A stretch of DNA of 45,921 nt, taken from Escherichia phage vB_EcoP-611R6. Positions 38,187-38,557 of this stretch are shown here, in pieces (the first letter of the stretch is position 1; every line of letters starts with the position of its first letter). The notes below the pieces were generated by a model. It did not search any database. It saw only the letters and a list, made by a program, of their open reading frames with translations, and was not told the DNA's origin. The position numbers were made by a program, and so were the translations under genes. The stretch is taken from the sequence record ON470589.1; one strand, given 5' to 3'.

Positions 38187-38339
38187 ATGGAAAAAGAAGT
38201 TAGCAGAATTTTGGTGAGAATGCCTCAGTCGCTAAAAGATGCGATTACAGGAAAGGCCAAAGAAGAATGCCGGTCGTTTAACTCGGAAGTGATTAAGCGA
38301 TTGCTGGACAGCCTGAAGAGAGAGGGGATAACGGTATGA
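38187..38339 (+). CDS. arc: Arc-like ribbon-helix-helix repressor
   Basis: Start at the internal Met MEKEVSR; 50 aa; RMPQSLKD...RSFNSEVIKRL resembles P22 Arc. Confidence 0.7.
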   Translation: MEKEVSRILVRMPQSLKDAITGKAKEECRSFNSEVIKRLLDSLKREGITV

Positions 38340-38557
38340 AGTTTATCGAGGTTGATGAGATTGGCTATGAGAATGCACTTGGTAGAGGTAAATCTTTAGT
38401 TAACGTTAATGGCATTGAGTCGATAAGGAGTGGTGAATTTACGGAGATCAGAATGATGTCAGGTGGAATTATTCCTTGCCGTGATTCAGTAGAGTCAATC
38501 AAATCAAAAATGAGTGGTCAGTGGCTTTATAGCTACAGTGACTTACAAAAACAGTGA
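38336..38557 (+). CDS. Hypothetical 73-aa protein inserted between arc and ant
   Basis: ATGA overlap with the arc stop; SD-like GAGGGG upstream; no recognised family. Confidence 0.45.

Follow-up and report, generated by a model that had tools for sequence, protein, structure and literature searches.

Is the short open reading frame (ORF) that separates arc from ant in Escherichia phage vB_EcoP-611R6 a gene and, if so, does it belong to the regulatory switch in which it is embedded? In phages P22 and epsilon34, no gene intervenes between arc and the terminator of sar, the antisense RNA of the antirepressor gene ant. In vB_EcoP-611R6 (record ON470589.1; the whole stretch of 45,921 nt was analyzed and is referred to here as the window), a 73-aa ORF, designated orf73, occupies this position. 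A preliminary description of the locus had rightly regarded it as an extra gene relative to P22, and had offered three readings of it: an additional regulator, a toxin-like small protein, or a sar-like RNA rather than a protein. In the current study, we find it probable that orf73 is a genuine accessory ("moron"-type) gene that occupies a one-gene slot in a P22-like immI region, bounded precisely by the stop codon of arc on one side and the 3′ end of sar on the other. The immI of this phage is P22-like plus one accessory gene, and not a rewired antirepressor switch or a new regulatory design. Gene order, orientation, promoter position, sar, terminator hairpin and ant (85-96% nucleotide identity from 38555) are the same as in P22 and epsilon34. 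In those phages, however, arc ends in TAA and the sar hairpin TGAAGCCCC follows 3 nt on, whereas in vB_EcoP-611R6 an ORF of 219 nt intervenes, and the C-terminal end of arc differs and bears the Shine-Dalgarno (SD) sequence and start codon of the inserted cassette. Homology to the two phages resumes exactly at 38555, with ant being 95.7% identical in nucleotide sequence to that of epsilon34 and 85% to that of P22.

Coding evidence and the sar antisense RNA

The ATG of orf73 begins at 38336 and overlaps the arc stop codon (TGA, 38337-38339), giving the ATGA at 38336-39 that had been noted before. A GAGGGG SD sequence lies within the final arc codons, 8 nt 5′ of the ATG. An SD sequence and start codon embedded in the last codons of arc, together with the ATGA overlap, constitute the anatomy of translational coupling to arc. 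The stop codon of orf73 (TGA, 38555-38557) is where it had been placed, and the ant ATG is at 38620; the gap between them is 62 nt (38558-38619), one less than the 63 bp originally given.

The length of the ORF is weak evidence for translation. The probability of meeting no stop in 73 codons is ~0.002 at the local composition, and many other ORFs of comparable size occur in the window's ORF list, in many frames. Conservation is far more informative. The 73-position profile of PHROG 11805 matches residues 1-73 of the protein, i.e., its full length (E 6.4e-53). In E. coli VR50 and EC416, RefSeq lists a protein of the same sequence, WP_023150345.1, as a hypothetical protein, and orf73 of Salmonella phage vB_SemP_Emek, which likewise lies between arc and ant and is annotated as a hypothetical protein, is 95.9% identical. 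As such, orf73 is already present in databases, both as a hypothetical protein and as a PHROG. The gene occurs at full length, in single copy and with at least 95.8% nucleotide identity in 51 of 5,426 complete E. coli genomes. By a word-indexed search, all relatives were at least 88% identical, besides two truncated forms (P0006, 48 aa; P0007, 45 aa) and a read-through form (P0001, 90 aa). An exhaustive HMMER scan over 1.84 billion representatives yielded a divergent relative (P0008) of 84 aa with 68% identity and an in-frame insertion of 11 codons; its contig keeps the order of mnt (minus strand), arc (plus strand) and overlapping ORF, with the same hairpin 3′ of the stop codon. When the two genes were compared, differences per site were far more frequent at synonymous (pS 0.578) than at non-synonymous positions (pN 0.198), with a dN/dS of 0.21 (Fisher p 6e-6). 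Since conservation in PHROG, in 51 E. coli genomes and in a relative with the same context, along with the dN/dS ratio, is decisive where length is not, orf73 is, on the strength of its sequence, a real protein-coding gene under purifying selection. Another match of the HMMER scan (P0009) was rejected on inspection as a spurious low-complexity repeat protein, and FAIM1 (E 0.087), the only match in a PDB sequence search with orf73, was dismissed as a chance match.

It is extremely improbable that the ORF is untranslated and that these 220 bp are a non-coding spacer or an RNA, such as an extended sar or a second antisense RNA. The ORF is short, and the 3′ end of sar does overlap it by 5 nt, perhaps more if it reaches into the U-tract. 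However, the excess of synonymous differences, the in-frame 11-codon indel of the 68% relative, the SD sequence with its ATGA coupling and the confident protein model all argue otherwise, and inside the ORF neither an RNA-family match (Rfam) nor a minus-strand promoter-like site (consensus scan) was found.

The arc-ant junction encodes sar nonetheless, as had been expected from P22. The match to RF00262 covers the full model with a score over the gathering threshold of 43 bits (Table 1). The 5′ end of the predicted transcript at 38619 abuts the ant ATG, so that sar is antisense to the ant ribosome-binding region, and its overlap with orf73 is confined to the last 5 nt, or perhaps a few more if its own 3′ end lies in the U-tract. 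The minimum free energy fold of sar contains the expected two hairpins (-29.4 kcal/mol). The Psar region, which is too weak for the consensus promoter scan, is the same as the annotated Psar of P22 at 28 of 29 nt and is identical to that of epsilon34. The terminator hairpin is invariant across eight aligned phages and prophages; orf73 takes its final two codons and its stop codon from the tail of this terminator. At the nucleotide level, sar, Psar, the sar terminator and the ant ribosome-binding region are all intact downstream of orf73. The proposal of a sar-like RNA rather than a protein was hence a false choice, for a full sar lies in the gap and the protein is under purifying selection. 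A ctRNA_pGA1 match, obtained when positions 37700-39700 were searched against Rfam at permissive E-values, was discarded because it represents the sar hairpin only.

The arc-sar interval as a cassette site

When the arc-to-ant interval was aligned across eight phages and prophages, two conserved junctions became apparent. The left junction, with the consensus AGCCTGAAGAGAGAGGGGRTARYGGTRTGA, comprises the end of arc (..SLKREG[IV][TAV]V*), the SD sequence and the cassette start, and the right junction, AAAnnnTGAAGCCCCAACTGC.., is the sar terminator. In P22 and epsilon34, nothing lies between the two (arc TAA AGT TGA AGCCCC). Scanning IMG/VR with a degenerate 30-mer of the left junction gave 68 loci containing seven unrelated ORFs, each of which starts at the RTG of RTGA: a 57-aa helical protein, three CxxC...CxxC proteins of 67, 63, and 74 aa, orf73, an 80-aa FlbD-like protein, and an 89-aa membrane protein. 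With the hairpin as the query, IMG/VR gave, among the matches listed, at least ~37 empty P22-type junctions, at least ~70 occupied slots (with two further zinc-finger cassettes among them), and at least ~14 loci where the arc frame itself extends as far as the TGA of the hairpin. In L113, L124, L087, and L078, for example, a divergent Arc runs to the sar-hairpin TGA and ends in ..GNLAKS* or ..IRSLKS*. Because some Arc proteins read through to the hairpin in this manner, arc too makes use of the stop codon that the cassettes share in the sar terminator.

Across IMG/VR contigs, then, the slot holds at least nine sequence-dissimilar small ORFs (eight besides orf73) or nothing. All occupants share a GGTRTGA start junction and a AAAnnnTGAAGCCCC stop junction. 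Every cassette ends in AAAnnnTGA, where the TGA is a T plus the GA that opens the stem of the sar terminator. The two codons before the stop (K/E, then S/Q/R) are the terminator U-tract read on the opposite strand. Presence or absence and replacement at one site, between conserved junctions and in syntenic phages, identify the interval as a moron or mosaic cassette site with precise bounds, in which unrelated genes have their start codon in arc and their stop codon in the sar terminator. The P22 arrangement without a gene is one of several common states. All cassettes stop at one fixed point, the foot of the hairpin targeted by sar. This constancy may hold terminating ribosomes in a set geometry with respect to the ant ribosome-binding site, or it may be the result of mere recombination at two conserved junctions; we have no preference between the two.

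Variability in this part of the genome is not new. The "ant moron" of P22-like phages, an accessory region with gene 16 on one side and the tailspike gene on the other, is highly variable, and its gene sets differ among phages (Villafane et al. 2008, PMC2629481); orf73 can be viewed as one more variable gene within it. That paper deals with whole-gene variation around immI; a precise one-ORF slot between arc and ant with shared junctions is not described in the portion available (PMC2629481). We found no paper on the arc-sar cassette slot or on Emek orf73 in the open-access literature, with subscription papers on mosaicism of P22-like phages being beyond the scope of the search. To that extent, variability of the ant moron has been published already, and the precise one-gene slot between arc and sar is without a description in the open-access literature.

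If orf73 were a partner of its neighbors, it would be expected to travel with them. Instead, the arc genes that accompany it fall into at least six N-terminal types, as do the ant genes, and in EC416 the identical orf73 protein stands beside an arc that is only 79% identical in DNA, which indicates that orf73 is an independent recombining module. The same arc alleles also carry unrelated cassettes, and P22-type arc also occurs with none. As an independent module, and as far as its distribution among sequenced phages goes, orf73 is not a cognate regulator or toxin.

These observations bear directly on a possible type II toxin-antitoxin-like pairing of arc with orf73, in which a ribbon-helix-helix (RHH) antitoxin gene is followed by an overlapping toxin gene. 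The architecture is similar, since a small ORF follows an RHH gene with an ATGA overlap, and Arc and Mnt weakly match antitoxin RHH families. Nevertheless, such a pair is very improbable. No toxin, defense or membrane-protein match was obtained for orf73 in Pfam, PHROG or PADLOC, its predicted fold is SwrD/RemA-like and corresponds to no known toxin fold, and its association with at least six arc types, with cassette-free arc and with arc alleles that carry other cassettes, is unlike the co-inheritance of a toxin with its cognate antitoxin. The protein is acidic, soluble-looking and devoid of a membrane segment. The toxin-like product suggested by the preliminary description thus finds no counterpart in these data. 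PADLOC defense models likewise gave no match for three other cassettes or for the P63C protein encoded upstream.

Decay of cassettes is common and is tolerated. The 67-aa zinc-finger cassette is frameshifted after codon 7 in 11 IMG/VR loci, three loci retain a 57-aa cassette reduced by an internal deletion (VIRLDAAKKSKQ), and an in-frame stop interrupts a cassette resembling the ClpX zinc-binding domain (ZBD) in L137. The truncated and read-through forms of orf73 mentioned above are decay variants as well. Loci with decayed cassettes include L010, L017, L022, L030, L038, L049, L096, and L137.

Stand-alone proteins resembling the N-terminal ZBD of ClpX are often found in the slot, with at least five CxxC...CxxC families of 60-74 aa. 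They occur in L114 (IMGVR_UViG_2617270968_000007), L083, L137, L002:2037-2240, L003:2037-2228, and L016. The cassette of L114 (MNKEDGFKCSFCGKPQHECAMLI..FICSSCVSLC..) matches the ZBD of E. coli ClpX (PDB 1OVX) unmistakably (E 8.7e-8), and the remaining CxxC cassettes show weak zf-C4_ClpX matches only. Such proteins may be decoys for ClpX adaptors or substrates. The 67-aa cassette is also present in E. coli Survcare253, where it is without RefSeq annotation.

Predicted fold and possible role of the orf73 product

An AlphaFold2 model of orf73, built on a six-sequence alignment, had a pLDDT of 83.6 and a pTM of 0.71. DSSP assigned strands to residues 2-8, 19-23, 27-32, 36-40, and 45-48 and helices to residues 24-26 and 52-59, followed by a less confident tail. 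SwrD/FlbD has been reported to form a hexameric ring held by an Asn15-xxx-Ile19 contact motif, with a fold of beta1-beta2, a 3-10 turn, beta3-beta5 and an alpha helix, and with a peripheral Pro-Asp-Thr motif (2026 preprint, PMC13232269). The predicted topology of orf73 matches this description. The best structural neighbors of the model are RemA and then the LytTR domains of AgrA and ComE, the same as those reported for SwrD. In a structure search of BFVD, many small phage proteins were retrieved with TM-scores of 0.6-0.76, several of them named "Flagellar and swarming motility protein". N23, I27, E28, and T36 of orf73, all of them invariant in its family, would fall on Asn15, Ile19, Glu20, and Thr28 of SwrD when mapped by the Pfam offset of 8, provided that the profile is numbered as SwrD is.

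There are differences too. On this mapping, orf73 has E34-F35 in place of the Pro-Asp of the Pro-Asp-Thr motif and R31 in place of Glu23, the tail is conserved and aromatic in orf73 but variable and charged in SwrD, and orf73 resides in a phage immI region whereas SwrD resides in a flagellar (fla-che) operon. The most conserved part of the orf73 family is C-terminal, ..SxESIKxxMSGQWxYSYxDL. RemA (DUF370), an octameric DNA-wrapping ring (PDB 7BME/7P1W), has a helical insertion between beta3 and beta4 that carries its DNA-binding arginines; in the orf73 model this loop is 3 residues long (33-35) and the insertion is absent, and the protein is acidic (pI 5.3). On present modeling, orf73 can be filed as SwrD/RemA-fold-like, and not as a demonstrated member of PF06289. 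For annotation purposes, we suggest that the ORF be kept as a gene encoding a SwrD/RemA-fold small protein of PHROG 11805, and that sar be annotated downstream of it.

How might such a gene be used? In P22, Arc shuts Pant off and Mnt represses Pant in lysogens. In P22-like phages, Pant transcribes arc and ant, and late transcription also crosses the region (PMC12111858; PMC2629481). By analogy, orf73 would be transcribed with arc and ant from Pant, with an additional contribution of read-through from the late operon. With its translation coupled to arc, the product would appear in a brief pulse early in infection, ending when Arc shuts Pant off, and again late, and it would be silent under Mnt in the lysogen. 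Given the predicted SwrD/FlbD and RemA fold and the apparent retention of the N-x-x-x-I ring-contact motif, the modeled product is probably a ring oligomer. Because orf73 is acidic and without the DNA-binding insertion of RemA, a protein partner seems preferable to a role on DNA or in the circuit, and the product would more likely bind a host or rival-phage protein than act on the arc/sar/ant circuit. We propose the invariant C-terminal SGQWxYSYxDL tail as the binding surface. An accessory early function aimed at the host or at competitors is, in our view, the more likely role.

The alternative in which orf73 is an extra immI regulator, forming a RemA-like ring whose binding to DNA or RNA would modulate Pant, Pmnt or the pairing of sar with ant, is rather unlikely. 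Its attraction is that the best structural neighbors of the model (RemA, then the AgrA and ComE LytTR domains) are DNA-binding, that orf73 lies within the arc-ant operon, and that ribosomes translating it would terminate at the foot of the sar-pairing hairpin. However, P22 and epsilon34 have a working immI with nothing in the slot, which is filled elsewhere by unrelated proteins, zinc fingers and a membrane protein included. The six or more arc and ant types with which orf73 is combined include some with different sar 5′ halves, and the pI of 5.3 and a beta3-beta4 loop that lacks the arginine-bearing insertion do not favor nucleic acid binding. Since the slot is empty or occupied by unrelated genes in other phages, and since orf73 reassorts with its flanking alleles, orf73 is probably not a component of the arc/sar/ant switch. 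The additional regulator envisaged earlier is therefore unlikely as a dedicated part of immI.

Returning to orf73 as an accessory gene with a SwrD-like product, several points weigh against this interpretation. The alignment used for AlphaFold2 comprised six sequences only, and two of the five models were poor (pLDDT 49 and 42). A Foldseek search of the model against the PDB gave nothing significant, with no match at E < 0.7. FlbD (PF06289) is the top Pfam match of orf73, with 12.8 bits and E 0.09, well under the gathering cut-off of 24.7 bits. A comparison of the orf73 family with the 80-aa FlbD-like cassette by hhalign gave a probability of 3.8%, which is not significant. A SwrD-like fold also provides little functional guidance, since the function of SwrD is unresolved and the hosts, E. 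coli and Salmonella, are without SwrD (PMC13232269). Finally, the translation of orf73, the timing of its expression and its oligomeric state are inferred.

The Pfam results extend to two other proteins. For the 84-aa divergent relative, FlbD is again the top match (14.0 bits, E 0.038) over the same profile segment, 10-51, as in orf73. The 80-aa cassette (MSFITLTKTKFESRR...ITLTSGRKIEVDQSVEHV..), present in L015, L058, and L040, also has FlbD as its top Pfam match, with E 1.7e-4 and 21.5 bits vs. the 24.7-bit cut-off. Homology between orf73 and this cassette was abandoned on the hhalign result, and FlbD as top Pfam match is what they have in common. A CENP-C motif match of the N-terminus of the 80-aa cassette (SRRTSDWW) was at chance level (E 0.3).

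The lowest-E Foldseek matches of the model in the PDB are chains of SspB, a ClpX adaptor (1zsz, 1ou8, 1oul, 1ou9, and 1twb). With E about 0.8-1.8, TM about 0.3 and low probability, they are non-significant and are not to be trusted; we mention them since the tail of SspB docks on ClpX zinc-finger domains, and such domains occupy the same slot in other phages. They provide the only link between orf73 and the idea of a functional guild, in which orf73 and the ClpX-ZBD cassettes would be interchangeable modulators of proteolysis by ClpXP and its adaptors, stabilizing Ant or another early protein, for instance. At least five distinct CxxC...CxxC cassettes in the same slot, one of them with the match to 1OVX described above, lend the idea some substance. 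Conversely, moron slots commonly hold functionally unrelated genes (PMC2629481), and the 57-aa helical and 89-aa membrane occupants are off-theme. We regard such a guild as improbable.

A broader proposal is that the arc-sar interval is a hot-swappable "first-minute" effector slot, whose occupants are fired together with the antirepressor at infection and are directed at the host or at rivals. The occupants would then comprise ClpX-ZBD decoys, two SwrD-like ring proteins (orf73 among them) and a membrane protein, and examples of their activities could be modulators of ClpXP or adaptor proteolysis, small antirepressors, and anti-defense proteins of differing specificity. Although speculative, and on balance unlikely, the proposal would, if true, make orf73 the first phage SwrD-fold protein with a defined target. 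In any case, the slot is a convenient natural place to seek early-expressed phage effectors, including stand-alone ClpX zinc-finger and SwrD-like proteins; in the open-access literature, we found no paper on phage FlbD/SwrD-like proteins or on stand-alone ClpX ZBD proteins.

Genomic setting and flanking features

The coordinates of the features discussed are given in Table 1.

Table 1. Features of the immI region of vB_EcoP-611R6, numbered from the first nucleotide of the window.
Feature	Coordinates	Strand	Description
mnt-like repressor gene	37823..38077	-	84 aa, Arc/RHH family; Pfam Arc PF03869 E 7e-9; RefSeq Arc family DNA-binding protein
Pant-like sigma-70 promoter (putative)	38127..38155	+	TTGACT-17-TATGTT, TG extension, 32 nt 5′ of arc; consensus scan
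arc	38187..38339	+	50 aa; Pfam Arc E 3e-11; RefSeq WP_000410309.1
Left junction	38310..38339	+	AGCCTGAAGAGAGAGGGGATAACGGTATGA; last arc codons (..SLKREGITV*), SD 38322-38327, cassette start codon
orf73	38336..38557	+	73 aa, 8.2 kDa, pI 5.3, PHROG 11805, SwrD/FlbD-RemA-like fold (predicted)
sar terminator	38546..38587	-	14-bp stem 38556-38587, then ACTGTTTTTG; terminator scan
sar antisense RNA (predicted)	38553..38619	-	Rfam RF00262, 87.7 bits, E 1e-18, model positions 1-68 of 68
ant antirepressor gene	38620..39522	+	300 aa; Pfam P22_AR_N E 7.5e-45, P22_AR_C E 9.5e-28
Psar promoter (putative)	38626..38654	-	assigned by position, ant +7 to +35
ant terminator	39540..39559	+	terminator scan; position agrees with annotated ant terminator of P22 and epsilon34

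The locus belongs to the immI region ("ant moron") of a P22-like prophage of the Lederbergvirus type. Positions 37800-38640 of the window are 100% identical to the chromosome of E. coli VR50, for which RefSeq lists, in order, a P63C-domain gene, an Arc-family gene on the minus strand (mnt), arc (WP_000410309.1), WP_023150345.1, a phage antirepressor gene and a tailspike gene. Pfam and PHROG searches of the window agree with these assignments.

On the left side, the Pant-like promoter corresponds in position to the annotated Pant of P22 and epsilon34. The mnt-arc intergenic segment (38080-38186) contains related operator-like inverted repeats, CACCGTGATAATCAC, TGATATCACAGTG, GTCACGGTGATATG, and TGTGATTCACA, around this promoter. 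They are unlike the annotated Oarc and Omnt of P22, in keeping with the divergent Arc and Mnt proteins encoded here. A P63C-domain gene (PHROG 2384, in the 36836-37835 region) is located just upstream of mnt and ends at a bidirectional-looking terminator hairpin (37812-37835), which the two genes share in a tail-to-tail arrangement. Sub-threshold sroH matches of Rfam on both strands were set aside, as they reflect this terminator only.

Downstream of ant, the window differs from VR50, as seen from the tailspike ORFs of 639 vs. 981 aa. The segment from 39623 to 42666 holds the 639-aa tailspike ORF, with a Head_binding domain, and a 375-aa Acyl_transf_3 gene that overlaps its stop codon (41539-41542); the counterpart position in VR50 is taken by the 981-aa tailspike. 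The 375-aa gene is likely an O-antigen acetyltransferase or lysogenic-conversion gene. Further downstream, in the segment 43520-44913, an integrase gene (397 aa, minus strand) adjoins a tRNA-Arg(CCT) gene at 44839-44913, marking the attachment end of the prophage.

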